DNA of 64,000 bases from an uncultured Spirochaetaceae bacterium. GTDB lineage: Bacteria > Spirochaetota > Spirochaetia > DSM-16054 > Sediminispirochaetaceae. Positions 17,709-35,205 of this stretch are shown piece after piece. The translations under genes and the position numbers were made by a program. Numbering within the stretch: the first letter of the stretch is position 1; each line of letters opens with the position of its first letter. Under the pieces are notes generated by a model that was not told the origin of the DNA, did not search any database, and worked only from the letters and a program-made list of their open reading frames with translations. Where the stretch lies: contig CAYFUX010000004.1 in the NCBI GenBank assembly GCA_964346455.1, forward strand, positions 44,959 through 108,958, given 5' to 3'.

Positions 17709-17724
17709 GTGTATAAACTTTTTC

Positions 17725-17753
17725 TTGACAGCACTATAGAGCTGTCGTACACT
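17725..17753 (+). promoter_or_regulatory. sigma70-like promoter TTGACA-17-TACACT for the ABC importer
   Basis: -35 at 17725-17730 and -10 at 17748-17753, 76 nt upstream of ATG 17829. Confidence 0.6.
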
Positions 17754-17764
17754 GCACACAGTCG

Positions 17765-17778
17765 TGCAACCGTGTGCA
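17765..17778 (+). promoter_or_regulatory. LacI-type operator copy 1 (TGCAACCGTGTGCA)
   Basis: Exact 14-mer 11 nt downstream of the -10. Extended identity GTGCAACCGTGTGCATAA with copy 2. Confidence 0.7.
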
Positions 17779-17828
17779 TAAAACGGCGGTGGTCACGACT
17801 GTAAGCTTATTCAAAAGGAGCGTCATTT

Positions 17829-19190
17829 ATGAAGAATGGATTAAAGCTGTTTTTTGCGCTCCTGCTGATCGTTAGCATCGGCGGTTTCGGTTTCGCCGAG
17901 GGACAGCAGGAAAAGCAGGAAAAGCAGGAAAAGCAGGAACAGCAACTGGAAGAAGGAAAGGATTACTCGGACAACAAGTGGACTGACGGTAAGGACCTTT
18001 CCGGACAGACTGTCAACATTTTCGGGGCCTTTGTGGACACCGATGCCGAGCGGTTCGAAAAGAGCATGAAGCCCTTCGAGCAGGCCACCGGTATCGAGGT
18101 TGAGTACGAAGGATCGGGCGACTTCGAGTCCCTGATTACCGTCCGAACCGAGGGCGGAGATCCCCCCGACATCGCCGCTTTCCCGCAGCCCGGGCTGATG
18201 AGAGATGTAATGGATCGGGTCGATCACATCGACCTGAACAACTGGTTTAGCCAGGACTATCTGCAGCAGCAGTACAACCAGAGCTGGCTCGACCTCGCCA
18301 GCTACAAGGGAGAGATGGTCGGCGTCTGGTACCGTGCCAGCGTCAAGAGCCTGGTATGGTACGCCAAGCCCGTCTTCGAGGAAGAGGGCTATGAGATCCC
18401 CAAGACCTGGGATGAAATGCTGGCCCTCAGCGATCAGATGGTCGAAGACGGCTACACACCCTGGTCCATCGGCATCGAGAGTTCCGGCGCCACCGGCTGG
18501 GTCGCCACCGACTGGCTCGAGGACATCATGCTGCGCACCGTTGAACCTGAAAAGTACGATCAGTGGGTCAACGGCGAACTGCCTTTCGACTCCGAAGAGG
18601 TCCGCCGGGCCTGCAACCTTATGGCTGAAATCTGGTTCAACGAGGACTACGTCCTAGGCGGACGCAACAGCATCCTGACCGTGCCCTTTGGCGATGCCGC
18701 CACTCCGCTGGTAAAGGATCCGCCTCAGGCTCTGATGCACCGTCAGGCGAGCTTCATCACCGCCTTCCTGCCGGACGAAACCGAGCTGGGTGAAGATATC
18801 GACTATTTCTATCTTCCCCCGATCGACGAGGAGCAGGGCAAGCCAGTGCTCGGCGCGGGCGACTGCTTTTCCGCCTTCACCGACCGCGATGCAACGAAGG
18901 CGGTCATACGATATCTGAGCCAGGGTCTTTCCACCAAGGCGTGGCTGCAGTCCGGCGGCTTTGTCTCTCCGCACAACGACACTCCGCTCGACTGGTATCC
19001 GAGCGATCTCGACCGCGGCTATGCGGAGATTCTGCACAACGCGGACACATTCCGCTTTGATGCCTCCGACTTGATGCCCGGTCAAGTAGGCGCTGGTCAG
19101 TTCTGGACTGGAATGACCGACTGGGTCAGTGGACAGAGCCTTGATAAGGTCCTGCCAAAGATCGACGAAGCCTGGCCGGAAGAGGAGTAG
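17829..19190 (+). CDS. CUT1-family sugar ABC transporter substrate-binding protein
   Basis: Signal peptide, (QEK)n linker and a family-1 solute-binding fold of about 450 aa. Two MalF/MalG-type permease genes follow. Confidence 0.9.
   Translation: MKNGLKLFFALLLIVSIGGFGFAEGQQEKQEKQEKQEQQLEEGKDYSDNKWTDGKDLSGQTVNIFGAFVDTDAERFEKSMKPFEQATGIEVEYEGSGDFESLITVRTEGGDPPDIAAFPQPGLMRDVMDRVDHIDLNNWFSQDYLQQQYNQSWLDLASYKGEMVGVWYRASVKSLVWYAKPVFEEEGYEIPKTWDEMLALSDQMVEDGYTPWSIGIESSGATGWVATDWLEDIMLRTVEPEKYDQWVNGELPFDSEEVRRACNLMAEIWFNEDYVLGGRNSILTVPFGDAATPLVKDPPQALMHRQASFITAFLPDETELGEDIDYFYLPPIDEEQGKPVLGAGDCFSAFTDRDATKAVIRYLSQGLSTKAWLQSGGFVSPHNDTPLDWYPSDLDRGYAEILHNADTFRFDASDLMPGQVGAGQFWTGMTDWVSGQSLDKVLPKIDEAWPEEE
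17907..17939 (+). repeat. in-frame 9-bp tandem repeat (CAGGAAAAG) x3 plus a partial unit
   Basis: Read directly. It encodes QEKQEKQEKQE just after the signal peptide. Confidence 0.85.
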
Positions 19191-19236
19191 TCGAGATACT
19201 CCGTCTTTACGGAAGGCAGCAAAGAAAGTATTCATC

Positions 19237-19270
19237 GGTGCGGGCGGGCCCCCCGCCTGCACCTTTCTTT
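19237..19270 (+). terminator. GC-rich hairpin plus T-tract between the SBP and permease genes (attenuator or partial terminator)
   Basis: GGTGCGGGCGGG-ccc-CCCGCCTGCACC followed by TTTCTTT. Confidence 0.55.
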
Positions 19271-19290
19271 AATCCTGGAGGGAGTACCGT

Positions 19291-20400
19291 ATGCAAAATG
19301 CAACGAATCCGAAAGATCGCCTGTTCAACATTTTTGCGGCCTACCCGATGCGAATAGCGATATCCCTTGTTGTGCCGGTGGTCACCTTTCTCGTGCTACG
19401 CTGGAGCTTTGTCTTTATGCGGGATGCGGAGGCATCCAAATTGATAATTGCCATTGTGGCGCTCCTAGTGGGTGTCGGTGGGGTCTGGATTCTGTTCTGG
19501 GCAATGAACAACCTGGTGCACTTTATGCCCATCAGGATCCGGGATATTCTACGCCCCTACGTATTTGCGGGGCCTGCGATTGCCGTGCTGACTTTCTATC
19601 TCATTTTCCCCGGTATCCGTACGATCATTTTGAGTTTTATGAACCGCACCTCCACGGCGTTCGTCGGGCTCAGAAATTACGAGTTTGTTTTCACCGACCC
19701 GCAGATGCTGATCGTGCTGCGCAATACCCTCTTCTGGGTGATCCTGGTGCCCTTTTTCGCAGTGGCCCTTGGACTCATCGTTGCAGTCATGACAGACCGT
19801 CTGAAACCGACAAATGAGAAGATCGTTAAATCCCTGATTTTTCTCCCGCTGGCAATTTCCTTTGTCGGCGCCAGTGTGATTTGGCGTTTTGTCTATTATT
19901 ATCAGCCTGCCGGAGCCGAACAGATCGGGCTTTTAAATGCATTGATTACAACGTTTGGTGCGGAACCGCAGGCGTGGCTTATACTGCGGCCCTGGAACAA
20001 TTTCTTTCTCATTTTCATAATGATTTGGCTGCAGACCGGGTTTGCTATGGTTATCCAGTCTGCGGCGGTGAAAGGGGTCCCCAGCAGCCTGCTTGAAGCG
20101 GCCAGAATCGACGGTGCGGGAGAGATCCGCATCTTCTTCAACGTCATTATTCCCTACATCAAAGGAACGATCCTAACGGTTACCACCACTATACTCTTCC
20201 TGGTCCTCAAGGTCTTTGACATCGTCTATGTTATGACAAGCGGTAACTACGATACCGGGATAGTGGCCTCGCGTATGTACCAGGAAGCATTTATCTATCG
20301 AAACTTCGGTCGAGGTTCGGCATTAGCGGTCTTCCTGTTTATTGTGGTTATACCGTTTATGCTGAGGAATATTGTCCAAATGCGCGAGGTAAGGAGATAA
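19291..20400 (+). CDS. sugar ABC transporter permease (MalF-like)
   Basis: Multi-TM protein with an EAA-type loop (LLEAARIDGAGEIRIFFNVIIP). Confidence 0.9.
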   Translation: MQNATNPKDRLFNIFAAYPMRIAISLVVPVVTFLVLRWSFVFMRDAEASKLIIAIVALLVGVGGVWILFWAMNNLVHFMPIRIRDILRPYVFAGPAIAVLTFYLIFPGIRTIILSFMNRTSTAFVGLRNYEFVFTDPQMLIVLRNTLFWVILVPFFAVALGLIVAVMTDRLKPTNEKIVKSLIFLPLAISFVGASVIWRFVYYYQPAGAEQIGLLNALITTFGAEPQAWLILRPWNNFFLIFIMIWLQTGFAMVIQSAAVKGVPSSLLEAARIDGAGEIRIFFNVIIPYIKGTILTVTTTILFLVLKVFDIVYVMTSGNYDTGIVASRMYQEAFIYRNFGRGSALAVFLFIVVIPFMLRNIVQMREVRR

Positions 20401-20403
20401 ACT

Positions 20404-21318
20404 ATGAGTGATACTACGGTAGAAAGCGTACAGCGGGGCAGAGTAAACGTAAAGACGAGGAGTAAACGCATAGAAGAACTCGTAAAATCGATACCGATGC
20501 GCCTCGTTTTACTTGTGCTCGTGTTGGTCTGGACGCTCCCGACCCTCGGACTCCTGGTGAGCTCCTTCCGAACTCCCGAAGCGATTACCGAATCGGGCTG
20601 GTGGACCGCCGTCGGCAGCCTGTTTGAAGCGGCCCAGTGGACCCTGCAGAATTACGAGAGCGTCTTTTTTGCCGACTTCATGGGGCTGGCCTTTCTCAAC
20701 AGCCTTCTGGTAACCGTACCCTCGACAGTGATTCCCATTACTATCGCCGCCTTTGCCGCCTTTGCGATTGCATGGATGGATTTTCCCGGCCGGGAAGGAT
20801 TCTTCATGCTCATCGTGGGACTTCTCGTCGTGCCACTGCAGATGGCCCTGATCCCGGTTCTGAAGGTCTACACCCAGACCGACCTCAACGGCACCTACCT
20901 GGGGATATGGTTGGCGCATACCGGCTTCGGTTTGCCCTTGGCTACCTATCTGTTGTTTGGGTATATATCAAGTATACCGAAAGAAATTATTGAATCGGCA
21001 CATGCTGACGGCGCCACACCCTGGATGATGTTTACCCGGCTGGTTCTGCCGCTCTCTAAGCCCTCTATCGCCTCCTTCGCGATTTTCCAGTTCCTGTGGG
21101 TCTGGAACGACCTGTTGGTGGCTCTAGTATTTCTGGGTACGAAAAAGGAGAATGCACTGGTTACCACCAGGCTGGCGGAGATGGTTGGCTCGCGCGGTCA
21201 GGACTGGCACATTCTCACCTCCGGTGCCTTCCTGACGATGATCATGCCGCTGATTATCTTTTTTACTCTACAACGCTACTTCGTACGCGGTATGATGGCA
21301 GGTTCGGTGAAGGGATAA
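20404..21318 (+). CDS. sugar ABC transporter permease (MalG-like)
   Basis: EAA loop IIESAHADGATPWMMFTRLVLPLSKP. Separated from the upstream permease gene by 3 nt. Confidence 0.9.
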   Translation: MSDTTVESVQRGRVNVKTRSKRIEELVKSIPMRLVLLVLVLVWTLPTLGLLVSSFRTPEAITESGWWTAVGSLFEAAQWTLQNYESVFFADFMGLAFLNSLLVTVPSTVIPITIAAFAAFAIAWMDFPGREGFFMLIVGLLVVPLQMALIPVLKVYTQTDLNGTYLGIWLAHTGFGLPLATYLLFGYISSIPKEIIESAHADGATPWMMFTRLVLPLSKPSIASFAIFQFLWVWNDLLVALVFLGTKKENALVTTRLAEMVGSRGQDWHILTSGAFLTMIMPLIIFFTLQRYFVRGMMAGSVKG

Positions 21319-21373
21319 TTTTCACTGGCTTAGGCCGTACGCATACGAGTACGTTCCTGTTATGGCCGTATTC

Positions 21374-21410
21374 GCGCCGCGTTCCCTGATAGAGCGCGGC
21401 GCTTTGTGTT
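21374..21410 (+). terminator. intrinsic terminator after the ABC operon
   Basis: GCGCCGCG-n13-CGCGGCGC followed by TTTGTGTT. Confidence 0.5.
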
Positions 21411-21454
21411 AATGCACCCGGCGCACCGACGTGAAGGTTTGTACCTGTAAAGAG

Positions 21455-22276
21455 TTACTGATCGGAGGCGGCGAGGGGGTGAAAATAGTTGCCGTGTTGG
21501 AGCAGTTCGTCTCTGAAGGGAGCATACAGCGCCGGTGCGGCGGCGAGGATGTGCACGTACTCGCCCGAACGAACGTATTGAGCACGCGCACCGGCTTCAC
21601 GGGCGATACAGATTCCGGCCAGAACGTCCCATATTTTCACCTTGAGTTCCCAGTACGCATCATAGCCTCCTTCAGCAACAAGACATATATCGTATGCCGC
21701 TGCACCCAGGCGCCGAAGTCCTTGTATTTGTGGGAGCAGGGCGTTGATGAACACGAGGTTATTGTCCAGGCTGGTGGCTTTGTCGTAAGGGAAACCGGTA
21801 GCGACGACACTTTCGGAGAGCTCGGCCGCCGAAGAGGGATGCAGCGGCTTCCCGTTGCGCAGAGCGCCGCCGCCCTTGACGGCGGAGTAGAGGATGTCGA
21901 GAGAGGGAAGGTACACAACCCCGAGGAGCGGTTCATCCTCCTCGGCAAGGGCGATAGAGACGGCATAGAGCGGGAGCCCGTGGACAAAGTTGGTCGTACC
22001 GTCCAAAGGATCCACGACCCAGGTATAGCGGCTTTGGGTGCTCGAGGGAGTGTGCCCCTGTTCTTCACCGAGAATGGCGTGGTCGGGATAACGGGAGGAG
22101 ATAGCTTCGGTGATAAGCCTCTCGCTGTCACGATCCGCTTGAGTGACCATATCCGCGGCGGAGCTCTTTTTGTCGATCTGCAGGGACCCGCCAAAGCGCT
22201 CGGCAAGGAGGGCGCCTGCATTCCGGGCTGTGGTTTCGGCAAAGGTACGCAATTCCTGAAGAGCGGCGGTTTCCAT
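21455..22276 (-). CDS. inositol monophosphatase family protein (SuhB-like)
   Basis: ILGEEQG and WVVDPLDGTTNFVHG motifs, plus the C-terminal WDVLAG. Confidence 0.9.
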   Translation of the reverse strand: METAALQELRTFAETTARNAGALLAERFGGSLQIDKKSSAADMVTQADRDSERLITEAISSRYPDHAILGEEQGHTPSSTQSRYTWVVDPLDGTTNFVHGLPLYAVSIALAEEDEPLLGVVYLPSLDILYSAVKGGGALRNGKPLHPSSAAELSESVVATGFPYDKATSLDNNLVFINALLPQIQGLRRLGAAAYDICLVAEGGYDAYWELKVKIWDVLAGICIAREAGARAQYVRSGEYVHILAAAPALYAPFRDELLQHGNYFHPLAASDQ

Positions 22277-22457
22277 GCCTGCAGTGTACGATGGGGACGC
22301 AATCCTTGCAAGGAGAGGTGAAGTTCATCAAAAAGGACTTGATAATATCGAAAGGCCCCGGCATCTCAAAAATCGGGGATTTTCAAAAGTACCTCCGGTA
22401 ATTTTAAAATTACGTTTTCGCTTATTCTCGTTTATACATGCTATATTTGATATAGAT

Positions 22458-23120
22458 ATGGAAACTCTGCAAGTAATCCTGGTTGACGATCATCCGCCGG
22501 TGAGAGATGGCCTCAAGGCTTCCCTCCTCAGCGATGAAAATGTTGAATTGGCGGCGGAGGCGGGAGATGGGGCCGAACTGCTGGACCTTCTCTCACGCAT
22601 GAACGTAGACGTGGTAGTGCTGGATATCTCACTGCCGGATTATACCGGTTTGGAGCTGGTACAGATCATCACCGATACGTACCCCACGATCTCCGTGCTG
22701 GTGATGAGTATGTACAATAAGATCGATTATATCCTGGATGCGCTCGCCCGCGGTGCAAAAGGCTACATGACAAAGGAGAGCTCTTCGATTCGCCTTGCGG
22801 AAGCGGTGAGAAGAATCGGTGTAGGGGAGTACTATTTTGACCAGGTAGCTTTAGAAGAGCTTATCCGCAGGGCTCAGGAACAGGGGCACGGCGTTGTGAC
22901 CATCGATAATGAAGAGTATCAGCAGCTTACCGCGCGGGAACGAGAGGTAATGAGGCTTTTGGCTCTGGGCAATTCAGTAAAGCGTGTGGCCTATAGCCTC
23001 TCCATTAGCCATCGTACCGTCGAGAATCACCGTACCAGTCTCTACAAAAAGCTGCATGTGGAAAATGATGCAGAGCTTGTCCATTATGCTGCCCGCATCG
23101 GGTTGATCGAGATAGGCTAA
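22458..23120 (+). CDS. NarL/FixJ (LuxR)-type response regulator
   Basis: Receiver domain (ILVDDHPPVRDGL...VVVLDISLPDYTG) and LuxR helix-turn-helix (LTAREREVMRLLALGNSVKRVAYSLSISHRTVENHR). Start at ATG 22458. No kinase gene is adjacent. Confidence 0.9.
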   Translation: METLQVILVDDHPPVRDGLKASLLSDENVELAAEAGDGAELLDLLSRMNVDVVVLDISLPDYTGLELVQIITDTYPTISVLVMSMYNKIDYILDALARGAKGYMTKESSSIRLAEAVRRIGVGEYYFDQVALEELIRRAQEQGHGVVTIDNEEYQQLTAREREVMRLLALGNSVKRVAYSLSISHRTVENHRTSLYKKLHVENDAELVHYAARIGLIEIG

Positions 23121-23331
23121 CCGGCACTCGCTCCCAGATACGGTCCTTCCTCGCAAGCCTGTGAAAAATTCACAGTACAACGTGATATTCCCTTATACCA
23201 TCCCCCGCTGTATCTATGTATACTGACACTGAAAACAGAAAAAGAGAATACAAAAAGCTATAGAAAAACAGATTACACAAAGAAGATGTAATGAAATATA
23301 TAATAAAAAGATATGTAAGAAAGTATCTGAA

Positions 23332-23371
23332 AAGCAGGCGGTGATGAGGATGCTTACTGCCTGCTTTTTTT
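23332..23371 (+). terminator. intrinsic terminator closing an A-rich non-coding stretch
   Basis: AAGCAGGC-n19-GCCTGCTT with a 7-T run (23365-23371). Confidence 0.65.
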
Positions 23372-23437
23372 CAGTCTTTTAACATCCCGCCTGTCGACCG
23401 TGGGCTTTATAAGCTCTTCAAGCCGTATACCGCCGTA

Positions 23438-24193
23438 TCAGGAGTTGAGGTGATTCTGCGTCCGTTTGAGAATCAATTCGAAAAAGTGATCTACTAAGAG
23501 AGCCGTACCGGCTGCCGCAACCGCTCCCTCCATCACAAAGGAAGTGTTGTCCCGGACGAGGCCGGAGACAATCGGCACCCCGAGCCCTCCCGCGCCGATG
23601 ACCGCACCTGTGGTAGCGGTGCCTATGTTCAGGATGAGACTGGTGCGTGCTCCGGCTATAATGACTGGTAGCGCTAAAGGCAATTCTATCTTAAGCAGAA
23701 CTTGCAGTGGCGTCATGCCCATTCCCACCGACGCTTCCTTCACCTTCTCCGGGACCTCCCGCAGACCGCTGACCGTGTTGCCCAGGACGGGAAGGATGCT
23801 GTAGAGAAAGAGCGCCAGGAATGCGGGAGGGAAGCCGAAGCCAATAATGGGCACGGCCAGACTCAGAACGGCAACGGGGGGAAAGGTTTGCGCAAGGGCG
23901 GTAAGATCCTGGATAGGCTGAAGGAACTCTCTGCCCCGAGGTCTGGTTACGGCAATCCCGAGGAGCAGCCCCACCAGAATGGCGAGACTTGCCGAAGCGG
24001 CCACCAGGCCGAGGTGTTCGACAAAGAGGGTCGGCAAGGAAGCTCGAGGGTAGAGGATTTCATCTGTGTTTGGGAAAAGAGTTGCGAGAAGCGACCCACG
24101 GAAGGAAGGAAGGAGGAGAAAGAGGAAGAACAGTCCGGCGGCGCCGAGTCGCAGCAGAAACTTCCACAGTGATCGTTTAGGTTCAGCCTTCAT
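23438..24193 (-). CDS. osmoprotectant ABC transporter permease (YehW/OpuCB-like)
   Basis: 251-aa binding-protein-dependent transport permease. Overlaps the upstream permease gene by 11 nt. Confidence 0.85.
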   Translation of the reverse strand: MKAEPKRSLWKFLLRLGAAGLFFLFLLLPSFRGSLLATLFPNTDEILYPRASLPTLFVEHLGLVAASASLAILVGLLLGIAVTRPRGREFLQPIQDLTALAQTFPPVAVLSLAVPIIGFGFPPAFLALFLYSILPVLGNTVSGLREVPEKVKEASVGMGMTPLQVLLKIELPLALPVIIAGARTSLILNIGTATTGAVIGAGGLGVPIVSGLVRDNTSFVMEGAVAAAGTALLVDHFFELILKRTQNHLNS

Positions 24194-25406
24194 CGGGAGT
24201 CTCCCATTCGTCAGTATTTTTTAAGCCTTCGGACGTGGCAAGGGAGGTGAGAAACAGCATACCGCGGTCAACGATAACAGAAAGGGCAATGATCGGCAGG
24301 ACTCCTGCAACAATCAGATCCGGCGCTGCTTGACCGAGCCCCTGGAAGACAAAGGTGCCCAGCCCTCCGGCTCCGATGAGAGCCGCGACGGTGGTGTTGC
24401 CGATACACTGGACAAGGCTTATCCGCAGACCGGTGAGAATAATAGGAAGCGCCAGCGGGGCTTCAATATACCGTAGCAGCTGACGGCGATTCATGCCCAT
24501 TCCACGTCCTGCTTCGCGAACTGCCGGAGAGACTACGGACAAACCGGTAAAGGTGTTGCGGGTGATAGGAAGCAGGGAATAGAGAGTGAGGGCGATCAAA
24601 GCAGGGGCATATCCGATACCGCTGATGCCGGCCTCCCGGAGGAACGGAAGCTGCCGGGAAAGCGCTGCGAGCGGGGCGAGCATCAGCCCGAAAAGTGCTA
24701 GGCTTGGAATAGTCTGAATCCCGTTAACCAAGGTAAAGATGGGCTCACGCAGACTTCGCTTCCGATGGGCTCCCAGTGCTGCGGGGATTCCGATGAGTGT
24801 GGCGATGCCCACTGCGGAGAAAGAGAGCGAAAGATGCCTCCCAACCTCGAAGAGGAACTTATGTCCCCGGGAACTTACTTCCATGATGACAGCGGTAGGG
24901 GAGAATCCTCCTGCGACTGCAAACACGGTCAAAAACAGCGCTGGTAAAAGGAGGGAGGCGCTCTGAATAGTGCGGTTCTGTGAGGAACGGTAGACGCGAT
25001 TGAATAGGATGTAGGATGCGAGCAGAAGAAGCCAAAAACCGCCGGAGGGACTGAGACGGCCGTACTCATGCCCGCCCTGTTGGAGGAGTTGCCCCCCGTA
25101 GAGCAGCGAGGCAAGGAGGACGGCAAACAATAGGAGGGCGGCTGTTAATGTACGAGTCGAAGTGAGGCGGCCGCTTAAGGCAAGCAGCAGTAGAACTGCC
25201 ACGGTGATTATCAGTACGCCCGTGAGCACAGGCGACAGCTGCCAGAGGGTGAAGGTCTCTCCTTCGGAGATCCGGTTGGGACGAATGCGCAGCATGGCGA
25301 GGTGCAGAGGAGTAGACGCCAACGAAGCCACGGTGAGAAACAAGAGCGCACCCTCTCTCTGAAGAGAAAGGGTGCGGCGTTGAGCCTGAATTGCCACTGT
25401 GCCCAT
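24183..25406 (-). CDS. osmoprotectant ABC transporter permease with an extra N-terminal TM domain (YehY-like)
   Basis: 407 aa. The C-terminal half is a typical permease domain (LPITRNTFTGLSVVSPAVREAGRGMGM). The N-terminal half adds further TM helices. Confidence 0.85.
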   Translation of the reverse strand: MGTVAIQAQRRTLSLQREGALLFLTVASLASTPLHLAMLRIRPNRISEGETFTLWQLSPVLTGVLIITVAVLLLLALSGRLTSTRTLTAALLLFAVLLASLLYGGQLLQQGGHEYGRLSPSGGFWLLLLASYILFNRVYRSSQNRTIQSASLLLPALFLTVFAVAGGFSPTAVIMEVSSRGHKFLFEVGRHLSLSFSAVGIATLIGIPAALGAHRKRSLREPIFTLVNGIQTIPSLALFGLMLAPLAALSRQLPFLREAGISGIGYAPALIALTLYSLLPITRNTFTGLSVVSPAVREAGRGMGMNRRQLLRYIEAPLALPIILTGLRISLVQCIGNTTVAALIGAGGLGTFVFQGLGQAAPDLIVAGVLPIIALSVIVDRGMLFLTSLATSEGLKNTDEWETPDEG

Positions 25407-25432
25407 ATTTGCCTACTGTAGTACTCTAAAAA

Positions 25433-26383: not shown

Positions 26384-26588
26384 TGGTTTTCTCCTTTTTT
26401 TAGCGCCGGCTGGAATTGTTAACGCCGCTGCGTCTTTTGTCTGATAGTAGAGAATTTATCGGATCGGGTCAAATTGTTCTCACCACTATTATTCTTTCCA
26501 ATATATTTCTCTCTCATATGAGTCTCTGCGGAGTTCTGCTATAGCCTTTGAAGCTATGAAGGTGAAAATCTGAGTGTGGTCACGCTCT

Positions 26589-27395
26589 TCAGCCGTTGCG
26601 GCTGCGAAGGACGTGCTGCAGGAGCGCGGGGTCGTCGGTGAAAATCCCGTCCGCTCCCATGTCGAGGAGCCGTTCCATCGCTTCTCCTTGGTTTATGGTC
26701 CACACTTGGACCCATAGCTTAGCGGCGTGGGCTCTGCGAATAAACGCAGGGGTGACCACGGTGATCCCTGCGTAGCGGACCGGAACCTGCAGCACCATTC
26801 CCGGCGTGCGGGGCGGGGGAAGTACCCGTGCTTTCTGCCGCAGCACGAAAGAGGCTGCTTCCCGTTTCGAGAAGCTCGTGATCAGGCGGGGAAGGCGGGT
26901 TCGCAAATGGACGAGGGTAGGATGAGAAAAGCTGGCTCCGAGTACCCGCTCATCCGCGCGATGGGCACGGATAATATTGGTAAAGCGCTCCACCAAACGC
27001 GTGTCAGGGTCTTTGAGGTCGATGTTGAAGCGCATATGGGGCAATTCCTCCAGGAGCTGTTCAAGGGTGGGGATGCGGATCCCCCGGCCCCGGAAGGGGA
27101 AGCTTACTCCGCCGTCGGGAGTAAAGTGGTAGCCCGCATCAAGGGACTGCAGTTCATCGAGGCTGTGTTCCTTTATCGCTCCGTGTCCCTCGCTCATTCT
27201 CTCTACAGACTCGTCGTGCCACACCACGCACTCTCCATCCCGGGTGAGGTGGACATCCGTTTCGATGCAGTCCACCCCCATTTGGGCAGCACTGCGGAAG
27301 GCCGGGAGAGTATTTTCCGGGTAGCGGACGGAGTCGCCGCGATGAGCGCATACTATAGGAAAGGGATGTATAAAGGGATGGCGGATCGGTTCCAT
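26589..27395 (-). CDS. glycerophosphodiester phosphodiesterase
   Basis: GDPD motifs AHRGDSVRYPENT, IETDVHLTRDGECVVWHD and QVWTIN. Start set at ATG 27395. Confidence 0.85.
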   Translation of the reverse strand: MEPIRHPFIHPFPIVCAHRGDSVRYPENTLPAFRSAAQMGVDCIETDVHLTRDGECVVWHDESVERMSEGHGAIKEHSLDELQSLDAGYHFTPDGGVSFPFRGRGIRIPTLEQLLEELPHMRFNIDLKDPDTRLVERFTNIIRAHRADERVLGASFSHPTLVHLRTRLPRLITSFSKREAASFVLRQKARVLPPPRTPGMVLQVPVRYAGITVVTPAFIRRAHAAKLWVQVWTINQGEAMERLLDMGADGIFTDDPALLQHVLRSRNG

Positions 27396-27444
27396 CGGCA
27401 GCGTCTCCCTTTTCGCGCACAAGTTTAAGTGATAGCGTATTCGT

Positions 27445-28341
27445 ATGAAGCTGCCTCGTCAAGTTACGGCTGTGATTGTCCCGCCGGCACCCGTGTTGGT
27501 GGCGGGAGTGCTCTTTGCCTCCTTCTCTTCCATTTTTATTCGTCTCTCCTCCGCTCCTCCGTTGGTAATAGCGTTTTACCGTATGACCTTTGCCGCTGTG
27601 CTGATTGCTCCCTGGTTTTTTGCTAAAACCCTGCGGGAGTTGAAAGCTCTCAGCGCCCGGGAAATCCGGCTCTTGCTTGCCAGCGGGGTAAGTTTGGGGT
27701 TGCATTTTGCAACCTGGATCACCTCCCTCAGCTACACCAGTGTTGCCAGCTCGGTGGTTCTAGTCAGCACGCATCCCATACTCGTGTATCTTTTGAGCCG
27801 GCTTTTTTTGCGGGAGGCGGGGAGCATGCGAAGACTTCTTTTCGTACTTCTTGCGGTGGCCGGCAGCGGGGTGCTCTCTGCTGGTGATTTTGGAAAAGGC
27901 TCGAACGCGCTGTTTGGGGATCTATTGGCACTGCTGGGCGCCGCAAGCGTAGCGGTGTATCTCGTGATCGGCAGATCGGTTCGGGCGCAGCGCAGTCTGA
28001 CGCTCTACACGTTTGTGGTGTATACCGTCAGTGCGCTGTTCCTCCTGAGCTGTGTGACCGCCGCCGGCAACCGATTGTACCCGTATCCGCCCCGGGATTT
28101 CCTCCTTTTTGCCGCATTGGCGGTCGTGTGCACGCTGCTGGGCCACAGCATCTATAACTGGGCCCTGCGATATCTTACCTCCACCTTTGTATCCGTGAGT
28201 GTGTTGATAGAACCGGTGGCTGCTTCAGTTATGGCCTACCTGTTTTTCGGCGAGGTCCCTAATGCACTGAACGCGTTCGGTGCGGCACTGATTTTGGCCG
28301 GCATATACGGGTATAGCCGGCTGCGGGAAGGCGGGAATTGA
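27445..28341 (+). CDS. EamA/DMT-family transporter
   Basis: About 10 TM helices arranged as two EamA-like halves. 298 aa. Confidence 0.8.
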   Translation: MKLPRQVTAVIVPPAPVLVAGVLFASFSSIFIRLSSAPPLVIAFYRMTFAAVLIAPWFFAKTLRELKALSAREIRLLLASGVSLGLHFATWITSLSYTSVASSVVLVSTHPILVYLLSRLFLREAGSMRRLLFVLLAVAGSGVLSAGDFGKGSNALFGDLLALLGAASVAVYLVIGRSVRAQRSLTLYTFVVYTVSALFLLSCVTAAGNRLYPYPPRDFLLFAALAVVCTLLGHSIYNWALRYLTSTFVSVSVLIEPVAASVMAYLFFGEVPNALNAFGAALILAGIYGYSRLREGGN

Positions 28342-28366
28342 CAACCGGGGGAGGGCGCTTTAGACT
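28338..28366 (+). promoter_or_regulatory. sigma70-like promoter TTGACA-17-TAGACT for the GH65-bPGM gene
   Basis: -35 at 28338-28343 and -10 at 28361-28366. Confidence 0.6.
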
Positions 28367-28373
28367 GCAATAG

Positions 28374-28387
28374 TGCAACCGTGTGCA
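28374..28387 (+). promoter_or_regulatory. LacI-type operator copy 2 (TGCAACCGTGTGCA)
   Basis: Exact 14-mer 7 nt downstream of the -10 and 22 nt upstream of ATG 28410. Confidence 0.7.
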
Positions 28388-28409
28388 TAAACTACCAAAG
28401 GGAGCTGAC

Positions 28410-31394
28410 ATGTCAGAGGAGAATACAGCATACCATCCCTGGAAGATCGCCGAGCACGATATAGACGAAGCTCGCATGGACGACCGCGAAGCGCTTTTTA
28501 CCGTGGCAAACGGGCTGCTCGGGGTCCGGGGTACTCTCGAGGAGGGAAGTTATGCGTGGTGCAGAGGCACGTATCTAAACGGATTTTATGAGACGGGACC
28601 GATTGAATATGGCGAACGGGCCTACGGATTTCCCGAGGAGAGTCAGACGATACTCAACGTAGCGGATGCCCGGAAAATTCTGCTGCGGATCAATGGCGAG
28701 GTCTTCGATCTCACACAGGGCGAGCTGGAAGCGTACGTACGCGAAATGGATATGCGGGAAGGTGTGCTGCGGCGCAGCCTCGTGTGGAAAAGTCCCGGCG
28801 GAACGCGAGTTCGCTATGAATCGAGCCGCTTCACCCCTCTGACGCGCCCGGGGATTATGGTGCAGCGCTGCAGTGTGACGCCCCTCGAGGAAGAGATTCA
28901 GATCGAACTGGTCAGCAGTATTGACGGAGAGGTCTACAATCTGAGGGAAGAAGGGGGGGACCCCCGTGCGGGGGGGCGCTTGGACGAACGTAGCCTGCGC
29001 TACGACCCCCCGCGGCGCGGTGAAAACGGCGGAGTGCTGCGGGCCTGCACCGCGGCTTCCGGACTGGCCTATGCCGTTGCCGTTGGACATCGGGTGCGCT
29101 CCGGCGGCAAGGAGGTGGACGGGGAAATCCGCAGCTTTGCCGCCGATTGTGAGGCGGGTATTGTCGTCGAACGCACCGTGTCCCCGGGGCAGGAGGTGGA
29201 ACTCGAGAAGTATGCGGCCTACACCTATGGAGAGGCTGAGGAGCTTGATACACTCGAAGAGCAGGTCGGAAGCTTCTGTGACAAAGCGTGTGCCGCAGGC
29301 GTGGAGACGCTGCAAAGAGAGCACTTTGCATATCTGGCCGGCTTTTGGGAACGGGCGGATATCCAGATAGACGGCGACCCGCTTCTTCAGCAGGGAATAC
29401 ATTTTAATATGTTCCATCTCCTCCAGTCCATCGGCAGAGACGGGAAGACGAGCATTGCCGCCAAGGGGCTTACCGGCGAGGGATACGAGGGGCATTATTT
29501 CTGGGACACAGAGATCTATGTACTGCCCCTTTTCACCTATACTGCTCCGGAGATAGCGAAAAGGCTCCTAGAATACCGCTATTCGGTCTTGGAGCCTGCC
29601 AGATGGCGTGCAGCGGAAATGAGCCAGCGGGGCGCCCTCTTCCCGTGGCGGACCATCAACGGGCACGAAGCCTCGGCCTACTTTCTTGCCGGCACCGCGC
29701 AATACCACATCGATGCAGATATCTCGTACGGTATAAAGAAGTACCTGCAGGTCAGCGGAGATCAGGAGTTTCGACGTAAGGCGGCGGAGATTTTGGTGGA
29801 GACCGCCCGGATGTGGGCAGACCTTGGCGGCTATGTATCCCGGCGGGGAGGCGCGTTTTGCATCAACGGGGTAACCGGACCGGACGAATACACCGCCTTG
29901 GTCAATAACAACTATTACACTAACGTAATGGCGAAGGATAACCTTTTGACTGCGGCGGATCTAGTGGAGAATATTCGCGCAGAGGAGCCGGAGAGGTTTC
30001 GGGAGCTCGTCGCGGCGGTCTCGCTGCAGAAGGGCGAGCCGGAAGAGTGGCGTAAGGCGGGTGAGGCGATGTACTTGCCCTATGATCGAGAAATGGGTAT
30101 TCACGCTCAGGACGACACCTTTCTTGAGAAAGAGATCTGGAATATCGCCGCCATACCGCCGGAAAATCGGCCGCTGCTGCTTCACTACCATCCGCTGGTG
30201 ATCTACCGCTACCAGATTCTCAAACAGGCGGATACCGTGTTGGCGCTTTTTCTACAGGGCGAGCGGTTTAGGCTGGCGGAGAAAAAACGCGATTTTGATT
30301 ACTACGATCCGCTTACAACCGGCGACTCCTCGCTCTCCCCTTGTGTACAGAGCATTATCGCCGCCGAGGTAGGCTATCGTGAAAAGGCGTACGGGTATCT
30401 GAAGCAGACCGCCAGAATAGACCTCGACAACGTAAACGGTAATGTGCGAGATGGAATCCACACTGCCGCGATGGCGGGAACCTGGTCTGCGGTCGTGTAC
30501 GGTCTTGCGGGACTGCGGGATTACGACGGCGTGCCGCAATTCCGTCCCCATATTCCCTCCGTCTGGAGTCGCCTCACCTTCTCCCTGACCGTCAGAGGAC
30601 GTCTGCTGGAGGTGTCGATCACTCACGACGAGGTGGCGTATGCACTCAAAGAAGGCCATTCCCTCTCTCTTTTTCACGAAGGGAAAGAGCATACCGTATT
30701 CGCAGGCTCTCCGCTCGTCTTTTCGAATCGGCCCGACCTCGAAGCCGTGATTTTTGATCTCGACGGCGTGATCACCGATTCGGCAGAATATCATTACCAA
30801 GCCTGGAAACGCCTCTGCGAGGAGCTGGAAATACCCTTTGATAGGGATTTCAACCATAATCTGCGCGGGGTGGGGCGAATGGAGAGTTTGGAATTGATCC
30901 TGTCGCGGGTTCCCGAACGGCAGTATAGCGAAGCGGAAAAGCGTACGTACGCCAATCGGAAAAACGAGTACTACAAGGAGCTGATTACCCAGATTACCCC
31001 CGATGACCTTCTTCCGGGTATCCCGGAGCTTCTGCAAGAGCTCCGGAAAGCGGACATACGGATCGCCCTCGCCTCTGCAAGCCGCAATGCGGTGACGATC
31101 GTTGAGCAGCTGCAGATCGGCGAGCAGCTCGATGTAATGACCGACCCGGATCATCTCCAGAAAGGGAAGCCCGATCCCGAGCAGTTCTTTATGGCGGCGG
31201 ATATGCTGGAGCTTCCGTACCGCAACTGTGTGGGCGTCGAAGATGCGCAGGCGGGTATAGAGGCGATCAACGACGCCGGCATGTTCTCCGTGGGAATAGG
31301 CAATTACCTCGAAGGGGCCGATTGGATATGCAGCGATACTTCGGAGCTGACGCTAAAGCGGCTGCGGGAGGAGTTTCACCGCACGGTGAGCTGA
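28410..31394 (+). CDS. GH65 alpha-glucoside phosphorylase fused to beta-phosphoglucomutase
   Basis: GH65 core (GEGYEGHYFWDTEIY and catalytic-acid region GVTGPDEYTALVNNNYYTN). The C-terminal roughly 230 aa are a HAD-type beta-PGM (VIFDLDGVITDSAEYHYQAWKRL...GKPDPEQF...GVEDAQAGIEAINDAGM). Start at ATG 28410 with RBS AAAGGGAG. Confidence 0.9.
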   Translation: MSEENTAYHPWKIAEHDIDEARMDDREALFTVANGLLGVRGTLEEGSYAWCRGTYLNGFYETGPIEYGERAYGFPEESQTILNVADARKILLRINGEVFDLTQGELEAYVREMDMREGVLRRSLVWKSPGGTRVRYESSRFTPLTRPGIMVQRCSVTPLEEEIQIELVSSIDGEVYNLREEGGDPRAGGRLDERSLRYDPPRRGENGGVLRACTAASGLAYAVAVGHRVRSGGKEVDGEIRSFAADCEAGIVVERTVSPGQEVELEKYAAYTYGEAEELDTLEEQVGSFCDKACAAGVETLQREHFAYLAGFWERADIQIDGDPLLQQGIHFNMFHLLQSIGRDGKTSIAAKGLTGEGYEGHYFWDTEIYVLPLFTYTAPEIAKRLLEYRYSVLEPARWRAAEMSQRGALFPWRTINGHEASAYFLAGTAQYHIDADISYGIKKYLQVSGDQEFRRKAAEILVETARMWADLGGYVSRRGGAFCINGVTGPDEYTALVNNNYYTNVMAKDNLLTAADLVENIRAEEPERFRELVAAVSLQKGEPEEWRKAGEAMYLPYDREMGIHAQDDTFLEKEIWNIAAIPPENRPLLLHYHPLVIYRYQILKQADTVLALFLQGERFRLAEKKRDFDYYDPLTTGDSSLSPCVQSIIAAEVGYREKAYGYLKQTARIDLDNVNGNVRDGIHTAAMAGTWSAVVYGLAGLRDYDGVPQFRPHIPSVWSRLTFSLTVRGRLLEVSITHDEVAYALKEGHSLSLFHEGKEHTVFAGSPLVFSNRPDLEAVIFDLDGVITDSAEYHYQAWKRLCEELEIPFDRDFNHNLRGVGRMESLELILSRVPERQYSEAEKRTYANRKNEYYKELITQITPDDLLPGIPELLQELRKADIRIALASASRNAVTIVEQLQIGEQLDVMTDPDHLQKGKPDPEQFFMAADMLELPYRNCVGVEDAQAGIEAINDAGMFSVGIGNYLEGADWICSDTSELTLKRLREEFHRTVS

Positions 31395-31598
31395 ACTCGT
31401 ACTAAGCGCTGGATACGGTGAGCTGAGTTCCTTCCTCTCCGGCCGCTATCCGCAATAGTATTTGCAATAGATTTGGAGTGACCCGCAGCCCTCACTGCGG
31501 CCGTTGTGCACAAGCCCCGGCACGTCTGCGGTGCGGGGCCTCCTTGTTAGGCCATTGTTAGCCCCAAAAGGGCGACCCCCCGTGAACGTGAAGCGCTC

Positions 31599-33914
31599 TT
31601 ACAGCTCCCGCTTGACAGTTTGACCGGGGGCGAGGGTATACGGCGTACCCCGGTACCATACCGTCACCTCTTCCTGATTGCTTTCCTTAGAGACGATCGT
31701 TAATCCGTCGCGTTCGAGTTCCACCTGAAACTGGTTCCAGCGGTAAACCAGAGGAAAGGCGATTCGACGCCACTGCTTTGGAAGGTGCGGCTCAAAGACC
31801 ATCCCTTCAGGGGTGGTGCGGAAACCGGTAAAGCCAAAGACGACCATCTGCCAGGCGATGCCGCAGGCGGCGGTATGGATGCCGCCGATGAAGGTCCCGC
31901 CGCTGCTGGGGGGATTGGTGGTGTAGAGGTCTATGGTGCAGCTGTGATGAAAATACTCGTAGGCTTGCTCGTGATGTTCGATGCGGGAGGCAACGATAGA
32001 GTGTACTGCAGGGCTGAGCGAACTGCGGTGCTGGGTGTGGGGTTCGTAATATTCGTAGTTGGCTTTTATCGTCTCCCGGTCAAAACGGTCGGGATGCAGG
32101 CAGAAAAGCTGAACTACATCGGCCTGTTTGATGACTTGCGTGCTAACGGCGACTCCGTTGGGCCATCCCCAGTACTCTCCAGGATCCTTTAGCCTCTCGG
32201 CGAGAGCCTCCGGCGTGGTATCCTCCAACTGGAAGTAGCCTCTGAACTGCTCGATGAGGTCGCCGGGTTTCTCCGGGGAGGGGAGGTGAAGGTGTGCATG
32301 CATATGGCGCCAGAGCTCGATATGCCGCTCCTCGAGGGCTATATTTTCTCGCAATGTGTGGAGACTCTCCGGCTCTTCGGAGGCAAGACGGTCGTACACT
32401 TCCAGCGCCGCATTCAGGGCGTAGCTTGCCTGGTGGTTGGTGAAGGCGTTGTTGTCCACGTTTTCATGGTATTCATCCGGCCCGAGGACACGAACGATGT
32501 CGTAACGGTCCTGGTCCTTTTTATAGTAGGCGTGGGAGATGAGGAACTGAGCAATTTCAAAGAGCATCTCTGCTCCTCTGCTGCGAATAAACTCCCAATC
32601 GCCGGTGGCGAGGTAGTAGTGCCATACTGCGTAGGCGATGTCGGGGGAAATGTGGATCTGCCAGTTGTTGAAATGGTTGCGGAGCTTACGCCCGGTAAGC
32701 ACGTCGCTGAAAAAGTAGTCGGGACAGAGCTCGTCCCCGGTGTCACCGCTGATCCAGGGGTAGAACGCCCCGTAGTATCCCAGGTTCTTGGCTTTCCGGC
32801 GGGCCCCGTCGATGACCCGATGGCGGTAGACCAGCAAGTTACGGGCTACCTCGGGATTAGTATAAAGGTACATCGGCAGGTTGAAAATCTCCTGGTCCCA
32901 GAAGGCCGCCCCCTGGTACGCCTGACAGGAAAGTCCCCGGGCGCCGATGGGCAGGTGATCGGTGTGGGCCGGAGTGGCGATAATGTTGTGGTAGAAGTTG
33001 TAGTGGAGCAGAGCCTGGGCGTTGTCATCGCTCTCTACCCGGATATCGTACAGGTCCCATAAACGGTCCCACACGTGGTCGCTCCTGGCCGCCTCTGCGG
33101 CATATCCATGCTCCGCAGTTTTGCGGGCTTGCTCTTCAGCAGCCCGGGTGGGCTCTCCCGTATCGTTTCCGGAGTAGACGCTCATCATGTGCTCGAGCAC
33201 GATCGACTCTCCCGGCTGCAGTTCGAAGGTGAGTGAGCGGATAATCGAACGGCCGTGCTCATCGATCTGCTCGTCAAGGGGAGCGACGCCGTGGAGCGAA
33301 AAGCCCTGGGCGACGCTCACCGGAAGGCCGTTCTCGGTGGTACTGCACTCTACTCCCAGGACTCCCTCGGCTGCGAAAGGGATGCAGCGGGAAAAATGGT
33401 CCCCGTTCAGGCTCCACACCTCCCCATCGATGCCGGTCTGCACTTCTACCCGTCCGCCTGTATGGGCGGTGAAGGTAACTTTTTGGGGGACGAGGTGGAG
33501 GGAGGCGTAACTGGCAAAGCGCTCGAAGGAGAGGGAATACTCGCCTCCTTCCGCGGAACGCCAGCGATAGCCTCCGTAGGTACGACCGTGCCGAAAATCG
33601 AGGGAGAGGCTGAAGTCCGCGGCCCTTTTGTCGTAGAGACTGAGGGGAGTATCCCCTACAAAAAAGCGGGTGAAAAGGGCATTGGGTACGGTACACAACT
33701 CTTTCCATTTCCCATCGGCGTTATCGTACGTATCGCTGACTACACAGCCTACGTAGTCCTCTCTGGTCCATTCGGGAAAGGTGCCTCGGTATCCAAGATA
33801 GCCGTTGCCGGTCATGAAGTTGCTGCCGATCGTGACAATATGCGAGGGGTCGAAACGGGTCTCGTTGATGGTCCAGTCGCCGGTAATACGAATGGGGCTC
33901 TCTCTACGGTCCAT
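31599..33914 (-). CDS. GH65-family phosphorylase (kojibiose/nigerose/trehalose-type; specificity unresolved)
   Basis: 771 aa. SNFMTGNGYLGYRG, GAAFWDQEIF and catalytic-acid region VLGPDEYHENVDNNAFTN. Confidence 0.9.
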   Translation of the reverse strand: MDRRESPIRITGDWTINETRFDPSHIVTIGSNFMTGNGYLGYRGTFPEWTREDYVGCVVSDTYDNADGKWKELCTVPNALFTRFFVGDTPLSLYDKRAADFSLSLDFRHGRTYGGYRWRSAEGGEYSLSFERFASYASLHLVPQKVTFTAHTGGRVEVQTGIDGEVWSLNGDHFSRCIPFAAEGVLGVECSTTENGLPVSVAQGFSLHGVAPLDEQIDEHGRSIIRSLTFELQPGESIVLEHMMSVYSGNDTGEPTRAAEEQARKTAEHGYAAEAARSDHVWDRLWDLYDIRVESDDNAQALLHYNFYHNIIATPAHTDHLPIGARGLSCQAYQGAAFWDQEIFNLPMYLYTNPEVARNLLVYRHRVIDGARRKAKNLGYYGAFYPWISGDTGDELCPDYFFSDVLTGRKLRNHFNNWQIHISPDIAYAVWHYYLATGDWEFIRSRGAEMLFEIAQFLISHAYYKKDQDRYDIVRVLGPDEYHENVDNNAFTNHQASYALNAALEVYDRLASEEPESLHTLRENIALEERHIELWRHMHAHLHLPSPEKPGDLIEQFRGYFQLEDTTPEALAERLKDPGEYWGWPNGVAVSTQVIKQADVVQLFCLHPDRFDRETIKANYEYYEPHTQHRSSLSPAVHSIVASRIEHHEQAYEYFHHSCTIDLYTTNPPSSGGTFIGGIHTAACGIAWQMVVFGFTGFRTTPEGMVFEPHLPKQWRRIAFPLVYRWNQFQVELERDGLTIVSKESNQEEVTVWYRGTPYTLAPGQTVKREL

Positions 33915-33944
33915 ACCTTCTCTCTCAAAACAGGGTTGAACATC

Positions 33945-33973
33945 AGTATAAATTGTTATGCAACCGTGTGCAA
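33945..33973 (-). promoter_or_regulatory. sigma70-like promoter TTGCAC-17-TATACT (minus strand) for the GH65 gene
   Basis: The reverse complement reads TTGCAC (33973-33968), a 17-nt spacer, then TATACT (33950-33945). Confidence 0.55.
33959..33972 (+). promoter_or_regulatory. LacI-type operator copy 3 (TGCAACCGTGTGCA)
   Basis: Exact 14-mer sitting between and over the -35/-10 of the minus-strand promoter. Preceded by TTA, which completes the outer palindrome arm. Confidence 0.7.
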
Positions 33974-33997
33974 CCAGGGGCGGCTGTCCGTGTTTCC

Positions 33998-34025
33998 TTG
34001 ACAGTGGAAAATAAAGCGGTATACT
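33998..34025 (+). promoter_or_regulatory. sigma70-like promoter TTGACA-16-TATACT for the LacI-family gene
   Basis: -35 at 33998-34003 and -10 at 34020-34025. Confidence 0.6.
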
Positions 34026-34036
34026 GATGCTATAGG

Positions 34037-34050
34037 TGCAACCGTGTGCA
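34037..34050 (+). promoter_or_regulatory. LacI-type operator copy 4 (TGCAACCGTGTGCA), implying autoregulation
   Basis: Exact 14-mer 11 nt downstream of the -10 of the regulator's own promoter. Confidence 0.7.
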
Positions 34051-34084
34051 TTAGCATTGATCGAAAGAACTATGGGAAGGTTGT

Positions 34085-35134: not shown

Positions 35135-35205
35135 ATCGCAGGGCATTCCTTTCTACCTTCATCGATACGGTTGATTACAAAAACGATTATCATTAATGTA
35201 AAGCT

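Follow-up and report, generated by a model that had tools for sequence, protein, structure and literature searches.

A predicted LacI-family regulon with one operator sequence at four promoters joins an ABC importer to two GH65 phosphorylases in Sediminispirochaetaceae

What is the role of a 14-nucleotide sequence that recurs, letter for letter, at four promoters around an importer operon, two phosphorylase genes and a LacI-family gene? The question is raised by a 64,000-nt stretch of DNA (here called the window; contig C4:44959-108958) from a Sediminispirochaetaceae metagenome-assembled genome (3.33 Mb in 87 contigs, 56% G+C, 95.7% complete). A preliminary description, made from the letters of the window, proposed that the 14-mer TGCAACCGTGTGCA marks a dispersed LacI-family regulon, in which the regulator encoded at 34085-35134 represses itself, an ATP-binding cassette (ABC) importer and two phosphorylases of glycoside hydrolase family 65 (GH65). 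The analysis reported here led to the same reading: in all likelihood the four 14-mers are operators of this repressor, which would control the importer together with predicted trehalose and glucosylglycerol phosphorylases. The sites and the genes beside them are as follows.

17765-17778, plus strand: operator O1, 11 nt past the -10 and 51 nt ahead of the start codon of the substrate-binding protein (SBP) gene; the relatives examined have an exact copy in the equivalent position.
17829-21318, plus strand: predicted ABC importer operon, with the SBP gene at 17829-19190 and permease genes at 19291-20400 and 20404-21318 (Pfam SBP_bac_1 and BPD_transp_1).
28374-28387, plus strand: operator O2, 7 nt past the -10 and over the expected transcription start; relatives have an exact copy or the variant TGCAAACGTGTGCA.
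28410-31394, plus strand: GH65 enzyme fused to beta-phosphoglucomutase (bPGM), predicted inverting trehalose phosphorylase (EC 2.4.1.64) plus bPGM (Pfam GH65 N, m and C domains and HAD).
31599-33914, minus strand: stand-alone GH65 enzyme, predicted 2-O-alpha-glucosylglycerol phosphorylase (EC 2.4.1.332; 4KTP/4KTR match and glycerol-site residues).
33959-33972, plus strand: operator O3, on a minus-strand promoter of which it covers the -35 and spacer; it lies 78 bp upstream of O4.
34037-34050, plus strand: operator O4, predicted to be autoregulatory, 11 nt past the -10 and 35 nt ahead of the start codon of the regulator gene.
34085-35134, plus strand: predicted LacI-family repressor of 349 aa (Pfam LacI HTH, Peripla_BP_1 and Peripla_BP_3).

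An exact search of the window recovered the four identical 14-mers at the positions first reported, all on the plus strand, and their number exceeds chance, as had been claimed: 0/100 window shuffles that preserved dinucleotides held any copy. Domain searches likewise agreed with the first gene assignments (SBP and two permeases, GH65-bPGM fusion, second GH65, LacI-family regulator). The preliminary description had advised scanning the genome for more sites; a mismatch search of the whole 3.33-Mb assembly returned the four known copies, no other exact copy and no 1-mismatch copy. Nineteen 2-mismatch sites were present, mostly within long open frames, and one of these is part of an operator pair upstream of a paralogue of the regulator (described below). 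The exact, 1-mismatch and 2-mismatch scan thus found no further regulon members in this genome. At three or fewer mismatches, the window held eight matches compared to 3.8 expected, which is the chance level.

The 14-mer is an imperfect palindrome made up of TGCAAC and TGTGCA around a central CG, symmetric at 10/14 positions; its symmetric forms, with positions 5/6 and 9/10 exchanged, are TGCAACCGGTTGCA and TGCACACGTGTGCA. One part of the first account did not hold. The site had been extended with its flanks to a palindrome TTATGCA-n6-TGCATAA, and the flanks of the four 14-mers in the window are not alike. Among 44 sites with distinct flanks from 12 genomes, information content was 2.0 bits at 13/14 positions, the exception being position 6 with 1.6 bits (C or A), and it fell outside the 14-mer to ≤1.2 bits at position -1 and ≤0.8 bits at positions +1 to +3. 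This sharp edge of conservation looks like that of a protein-binding site and not of a repeat element.

Conservation across the family was assessed in 17 genomes. The pattern TGCAA[C/A]CGTGTGCA was found in 17/17, with 3 to 4 copies per near-complete genome; TGCAAMCGTGTGCA was likewise found in 17/17 and the exact 14-mer in 16/17, with reversed-pattern controls of 0. Thirteen of the 14 positions are invariant across four genera, and the asymmetry of the 14-mer is strictly conserved. Each of the family's three other genera has regulator orthologues (62 to 74% identity), and the exact 14-mer lies upstream of the orthologue in each family genome in which that DNA is assembled. Sites were mapped in 14 fetched loci from 11 relatives, which brought the family genomes with fetched loci to 12; in these, each copy lies ahead of the importer operon or the GH65-bPGM gene, or within the divergent region between the GH65 and LacI genes. 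At the GH65-bPGM gene of three relatives (G009, G010 and G011), the site is TGCAAACGTGTGCA, with one C-to-A change at position 6.

Each of the four operators sits on a sigma-70-like promoter, read from the sequence and reproduced by consensus scan, and by both routes the promoter geometry first given proved correct to the base. The plus-strand promoters of O1, O2 and O4 were among the top four hits of the sigma-70 scan in 17600-35300 (10, 10 and 11 of 12 matches, respectively). In relatives, the -35 and -10 hexamers and their spacing to the operator are kept for each promoter class. The four promoters are as follows.

17725-17753, plus strand: promoter of the importer operon, TTGACA-17-TACACT; 10/12 matches in the scan, with the -35 and -10 kept in orthologous regions.
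28338-28366, plus strand: promoter of the GH65-bPGM gene, TTGACA-17-TAGACT; found by consensus scan and kept in relatives.
33945-33973, minus strand: promoter of the putative glucosylglycerol phosphorylase gene, TTGCAC-17-TATACT or TGCACA-16-TATACT; the -10 and the operator-flanking A that completes the -35 are kept in relatives.
33998-34025, plus strand: promoter of the regulator gene, TTGACA-16-TATACT; 11/12 matches, the best hit of the region.

Operators O1, O2 and O4 start 7 to 11 nt past the -10 and so cover both the start and the early transcribed region; at its promoter, O3 lies over the -35 and spacer. These positions argue for repression. The same positions bear on a different reading, in which the 14-mer is either an RNA leader element that acts from 5' untranslated regions or a short dispersed repeat that has nothing to do with a DNA-binding protein. 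Three of the four copies lie past the -10 and would be transcribed, and all four are oriented alike in this genome, as such a reading would have it. O3, in contrast, lies within the -35 and spacer and hence is not transcribed with its gene, no Rfam match was found, and the orientation of the site relative to its target gene is flipped in genomes of other families (G019, G030 and G017), which together led to the rejection of an RNA element. The preliminary description had itself raised the prospect of a widespread repeat away from promoters. The genome holds four copies, each at a promoter, with identity that ends at the edges of the 14-mer, on which a dispersed repeat or mobile element was rejected; the 3 to 4 copies per genome and their confinement to importer, GH65-bPGM and GH65/LacI genes in the 12 family genomes point the same way. 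We consider this reading as a whole to be extremely improbable.

If the 14-mers are operators, which protein binds them? The adjacent regulator has an HTH_LacI domain (PF00356, E=3.3e-15, residues 14-57) and an effector domain of the periplasmic-binding-protein type (Peripla_BP_3, E=5.9e-28; Peripla_BP_1, E=5.4e-18), and its relatives in the PDB are RbsR, CcpA and PurR (E=1e-35 to 1e-40). The recognition region, AGVSHSTVSRSLN, is invariant or nearly so among orthologues, and the hinge region contains a conserved Leu, within SAQSLST in the window regulator and within A[QR]SLST in most of its orthologues. Regulator and operator together show the LacI-family combination of a hinge Leu, a central CpG and an even-length, roughly palindromic operator. 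Against the NCBIfam equivalogs, the regulator scored far below every named cut-off (RbsR, PurR, CcpA, GalR, TreR and MalI); RbsR was best at 178 bits compared to a cut-off of 531, and the scores for CcpA and the E. coli-type TreR were 134 (compared to 442) and 69 (compared to 357). The regulator was therefore not assigned to any named equivalog, and identities as a CcpA acting at cre sites or as an E. coli-type TreR were ruled out by these cut-offs.

Outside the family, 24 genomes of the class were compared. Regulator orthologues of 46 to 53% identity were found in 4/24 (G017, G019, G030 and G034), and the motif lies beside the orthologue in three of these four, the fourth (G034) having a 2-mismatch variant. 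A further genome (G022) encodes a 40% homologue with a 1-mismatch variant directly upstream. Among the other 19 genomes, the motif was found in one (G027), as a single copy. Presence of the motif thus parallels presence of a regulator orthologue across the class. The single copy in G027, TGCAAACGTGTGCA at L083 4029-4042, falls inside a ribose-type ABC operon, where it separates binding-protein from permease genes, and this genome has no regulator orthologue; the copy may be due to chance or may be the target of another LacI protein.

These data also address the possibility that the 14-mers are real operators bound by another regulator, either a LacI paralogue or a CcpA-like global protein, and that the adjacent LacI gene is merely one of the targets. 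The motif does resemble the generic TGnAAnCGnTTnCA class, and the genome encodes at least one paralogue (48%) with a closely related operator. That paralogue differs from the adjacent regulator in its recognition helix and in the sites that it has for itself. The motif co-occurs with the orthologous group of the adjacent regulator and lies immediately upstream of it in the family genomes with assembled DNA and in three outside families. The 3 to 4 sites per genome exclude a global role, and the CcpA score lies far below its cut-off (see above). Binding by another regulator is, on this evidence, very unlikely, and the repressor encoded at 34085-35134 is preferred as the protein that binds the 14-mer.

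The paralogue is encoded on contig C16 of this genome (G000 C16:33414-34421, minus strand). Its recognition region is AGTSLSTVSRSLN, and different operators, TGCAAGCGCTTGCA and TGCAACCGCTTGCA, lie upstream of it. The operator pair maps to L082 7553-7568 and 7705-7720 as ATGCAAGCGCTTGCAT, a perfect palindrome, and ATGCAACCGCTTGCAT. The recognition helix reads TSLSTVSRSLN in the C16 paralogue compared to VSHSTVSRSLN in the window regulator, and judged from helices and sites, the two proteins look like a natural specificity-switch pair.

Which genes does the regulator keep as partners in other genera and families? In genus g3 (G002 and G008), the importer operon adjoins the GH65 cluster with no Opu insertion. 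In genus g2, a third operator heads a nonorthologous importer with the same promoter-operator layout (TTGACA-17-TACACT, 5 nt, operator), and the SBP of this importer is of an alpha-glycoside and trehalose/maltose-binding type (6J9W, E=7e-126; 1EU8, E=2e-78). At the g2 loci L071 343-3753 (G004) and L065 (G001), the SBP and both permeases are replaced and the downstream LuxR response regulator is kept, which looks like displacement of a transporter in situ. Beyond the family, G030 has a codirectional GH65-LacI-SBP-permease-permease arrangement and G034 a codirectional LacI-SBP-permease-permease-GH65bPGM arrangement. In G019, which belongs to another family, sites lie at L073 8803-8816 and L084 4346-4359: the operator is ahead of a GH13 alpha-glucosidase-SBP-permease operon, and its A variant is ahead of a GH13-GH65bPGM operon; these targets suggest that the target set of the regulator was rewired between families. 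Together, the linkages in g2, g3, G019, G030 and G034 suggest that the regulator and its motif are a long-established means of alpha-glucoside regulation in the class Spirochaetia, with the importer and the GH65-bPGM enzyme as predicted core partners.

The substrates of the regulon were approached through the two GH65 enzymes, which are the only GH65 genes found in the genome. The stand-alone enzyme matches 4KTP/4KTR, the Bacillus (Salisediminibacterium) selenitireducens 2-O-alpha-glucosylglycerol phosphorylase Bsel_2816 (BsGGP; PMC3899277), with E=7e-232 and 49.5% identity over 737 aligned residues. All seven glycerol-site residues (Y327, W381, F395, F396, F409, Y572 and K587 in BsGGP numbering) are identical in it and in 10 of its orthologues; the list of residues is that of PMC11442529, in which five of the seven are specific to glucosylglycerol phosphorylases. 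The catalytic-acid motif GPDEYHEN and the phosphate-site SSLSP are also present. The stand-alone enzyme is accordingly a predicted 2-O-alpha-glucosylglycerol phosphorylase.

The best solved relatives of the fusion enzyme are maltose phosphorylase (E=1e-117) and then kojibiose phosphorylase. Its specificity positions, read against published GH65 motifs that include the correlated positions 64/392/394/402/416/585 (TRIGPP-like; PMC11442529, PMC8537180), are, where they aligned with confidence (all but 64 and 416), those of trehalose phosphorylases: W391/R392/A417 (WRA), a loop-3 S-A-Y, I394 and P585 in CsKP numbering. GPDEY for the catalytic acid and Ser-Ser/His for the phosphate site are also in place. 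These signatures are kept in 15 fusion orthologues, with minor loop variants SSY, SAF and SPY. Motifs of maltose, kojibiose, nigerose and trehalose-6-phosphate phosphorylases were absent from the fusion enzyme. The C-terminal domain (residues 777-964) scored 255.2 bits against the bPGM model TIGR01990, above the cut-off of 189.4, and matched bPGMs in the PDB with E=6e-64. The fusion enzyme is thus predicted to combine an inverting trehalose phosphorylase with a bPGM.

Could the regulator and operators be as proposed and yet serve another alpha-glucoside, such as kojibiose, nigerose or maltose? The ranking of solved relatives given above would fit such a substrate, the structural comparison included no trehalose phosphorylase structure, and BsGGP is reported to hydrolyse kojibiose weakly and in a phosphate-dependent manner (PMC3899277). 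The signature positions speak otherwise. The fusion enzyme lacks the maltose phosphorylase (HNE, MVI, KV[MF]NES) and kojibiose phosphorylase (WET, TPK, EEAP) motifs and has WRA, SAY, R392, I394 and P585 (PMC11442529, PMC8537180), by which its identification as a maltose or kojibiose phosphorylase was ruled out; the second GH65 keeps 7/7 glycerol-site residues; and the alternative importer of genus g2 is of the trehalose/maltose-binding type. Another alpha-glucoside as the substrate of the regulon is therefore unlikely, and trehalose and glucosylglycerol remain the preferred pair.

For the importer itself, trehalose and/or glucosylglycerol are predicted substrates by association with these enzymes. 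The composition of the importer is of the CUT1 type (an SBP_bac_1 binding protein with two BPD_transp_1 permeases in Pfam), and its SBP has only weak relatives in the PDB (E about 1e-9). The preliminary description had taken the regulon to define the substrate class of the importer, an alpha-glucoside or glucosyl compatible solute. The class stood and was sharpened by homology to trehalose and 2-O-alpha-glucosylglycerol; as a statement on the importer it went too far, since the tie is one of association. The 95.7%-complete assembly yielded no GT20 synthase of the OtsA/GgpS type, an absence that agrees with solutes being taken up from outside. Both trehalose and glucosylglycerol have been reported as abundant osmolytes of cyanobacterial mat consortia (PMC5507952).

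A working model of the regulon can be drawn from these observations. Without inducer, a repressor dimer would occupy each operator, with the hinge-helix leucines inserted at the central CpG, as expected from knowledge of the family. At the importer operon, the GH65-bPGM gene and the regulator gene, RNA polymerase would be blocked at or just past the transcription start, and at the second GH65 gene, the -35 and spacer would lie under the repressor. Its release would come with an inducer of the alpha-glucoside type. The regulon would then import a pair of compatible solutes that are typical for cyanobacterial mats, and both would be cleaved by phosphorolysis: the fusion enzyme would convert trehalose to glucose and beta-glucose-1-phosphate, which the fused mutase would convert to glucose 6-phosphate, and the stand-alone GH65 would convert 2-O-alpha-glucosylglycerol to glycerol and beta-glucose-1-phosphate.

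Trehalose is the first candidate for the inducer and the simplest guess, because the GH65-bPGM gene appears to be the ancestral partner of the regulator. The shared product beta-glucose-1-phosphate is an alternative that would explain coinduction by both solutes. DNA looping between O3 and O4 found no support: their spacing varies across genomes (69-70, 78, 133 and 159 bp), and the Peripla_BP_3 domain runs to residue 349, which leaves no room for a LacI-style tetramerisation helix. The two sites were therefore treated as independent.

Four observations weigh against the regulon as drawn here. An operator that is symmetric at 10/14 positions, with its asymmetry strictly kept, is unusual for predicted LacI motifs. 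The trehalose phosphorylase call rests on signature positions, and two of the six correlated ones (CsKP 64 and 416) fall in ambiguous alignment gaps. One regulator and one importer would have to serve two chemically different solutes, and the SBP in the window has no characterised close relative. Finally, the operator in G019 controls GH13 hydrolase operons, which argues against beta-glucose-1-phosphate as a universal inducer. Phylogenetic footprinting, the placement of sites in family genomes and the co-occurrence of motif and regulator nonetheless support the dispersed LacI-family regulon that was first put forward, with binding and repression as its predicted mode of action. A bolder version of the model would have the single repressor and the single importer, the latter with an SBP of an uncharacterised lineage, integrate the scavenging of trehalose and glucosylglycerol; the repressor might sense beta-glucose-1-phosphate instead of either substrate, and the asymmetry of the operator might be kept by a functional need, for instance, binding that is oriented or specific to one half-site, and not by inheritance. 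A weaker variant of it is that the phosphorylases, which are reversible, may also build these solutes, given that no OtsA/GgpS-type synthase was detected. We regard this version as unlikely.

The importer operon contains two further elements and is followed by a stretch of other genes. The elements are as follows.

19237-19263, plus strand: GC-rich intraoperon hairpin in the gap between the SBP gene and the first permease gene; 12 pairs, 10 of them G-C.
21374-21402, plus strand: terminator-like hairpin at the end of the importer operon; 11 pairs (9 G-C), with a T-run after it.

Hairpins between the SBP and permease genes of ABC operons often raise the ratio of SBP to permease expression. The operon has no ATPase gene, and the genome has no further operator; in other CUT1 systems, the ATPase is a shared one whose gene lies elsewhere. 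The genes between the importer and the phosphorylases encode a response regulator of the LuxR type, an osmoprotectant ABC system of the OpuA type with no ATPase, a phosphodiesterase (GDPD) and a transporter (EamA). This stretch of about 7 kb (21431-28341, from the importer to the GH65-bPGM gene) differs between genera; genus g3 (L064, G002) has no Opu genes, and the EamA gene is always immediately 5' of the GH65-bPGM gene. An open reading frame (ORF) at 21431-22321 (296 aa), past the importer terminator, had no Pfam or NCBIfam match and is overlapped by long ORFs on the opposite strand.

For free-living halophilic spirochaetes, which are poorly studied, the locus provides a testable regulon model: one operator sequence, four promoters and one repressor. 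It gives a role to genes that are vague by homology alone, namely, an orphan SBP lineage in a predicted importer and a predicted GH65 glucosylglycerol phosphorylase outside the Firmicutes. It would also support the view that mat and sediment spirochaetes live on osmolytes shed by cyanobacteria. With its consensus-like promoters, the invariant 14-bp operator could be put to practical use in a compact repressor-operator pair. These points leave the present view of LacI-type regulation as it was.

How does the proposed regulon compare with known systems? In the maltose/maltodextrin systems of Firmicutes (MdxR/YvdE-mdx of B. subtilis, MalR of Enterococcus and Listeria), a LacI-family regulator is associated with an ABC importer, a GH65 maltose phosphorylase and a bPGM. 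The regulon described here resembles them in the LacI-type control of an importer and of an inverting GH65 enzyme whose beta-glucose-1-phosphate would go to a bPGM. It differs in that the phosphorylase has trehalose phosphorylase rather than maltose phosphorylase signatures and is fused to the bPGM, in the presence of a second GH65 with glucosylglycerol phosphorylase signatures, and in the spread of the genes over 16 kb with an osmolyte-related insertion between them. The enzymes have known counterparts as well. Like the inverting GH65 trehalose phosphorylases of Thermoanaerobacter brockii, Caldanaerobacter and Thermobispora (PMC11442529, PMC8537180), the fusion enzyme has WRA, SAY, R392, I394 and P585; unlike them, it is fused at its C terminus to a complete bPGM, and its activity is predicted. 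For Bsel_2816, PMC3899277 mentions no regulator, operator or gene cluster, whereas the homologous GH65 gene is placed here in a regulon with an importer.

LacI-family regulons were surveyed by comparative genomics by Ravcheev et al. (2014; PMC4052901), including those of TreR and ThuR for trehalose and of MalR and MdxR for maltose/maltodextrin; spirochaetes have 0 mentions in that survey. The usual operator of the family is of even length with a central CG and lies 30 to 140 bp before the start codon, and autoregulation occurs in 72% (PMC4052901). The regulon proposed here is like the local regulons of that survey in its HTH_LacI and periplasmic-binding-protein core, its even-length operator with a central CG, its autoregulatory site, its small set of transporter and enzyme genes, and its operators, which lie 23 to 58 bp ahead of start codons. 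In the literature searched, the 14-mer or its variants appeared in no paper, and no paper tied Sediminispirochaeta to trehalose or glucosylglycerol. A local, autoregulated LacI regulon is a thoroughly known kind of system, and the regulator itself has no named equivalog. Set beside the surveyed regulons, the system differs in that regulator, in an asymmetric operator that is invariant at 13/14 positions over four genera, and in the predicted combination of trehalose and glucosylglycerol enzymes. As far as sequence comparison indicates, it appears modestly unusual in this near-invariant asymmetric operator, in the placement of the two enzymes under one repressor and in the apparent replacement of the importer in situ in one genus.

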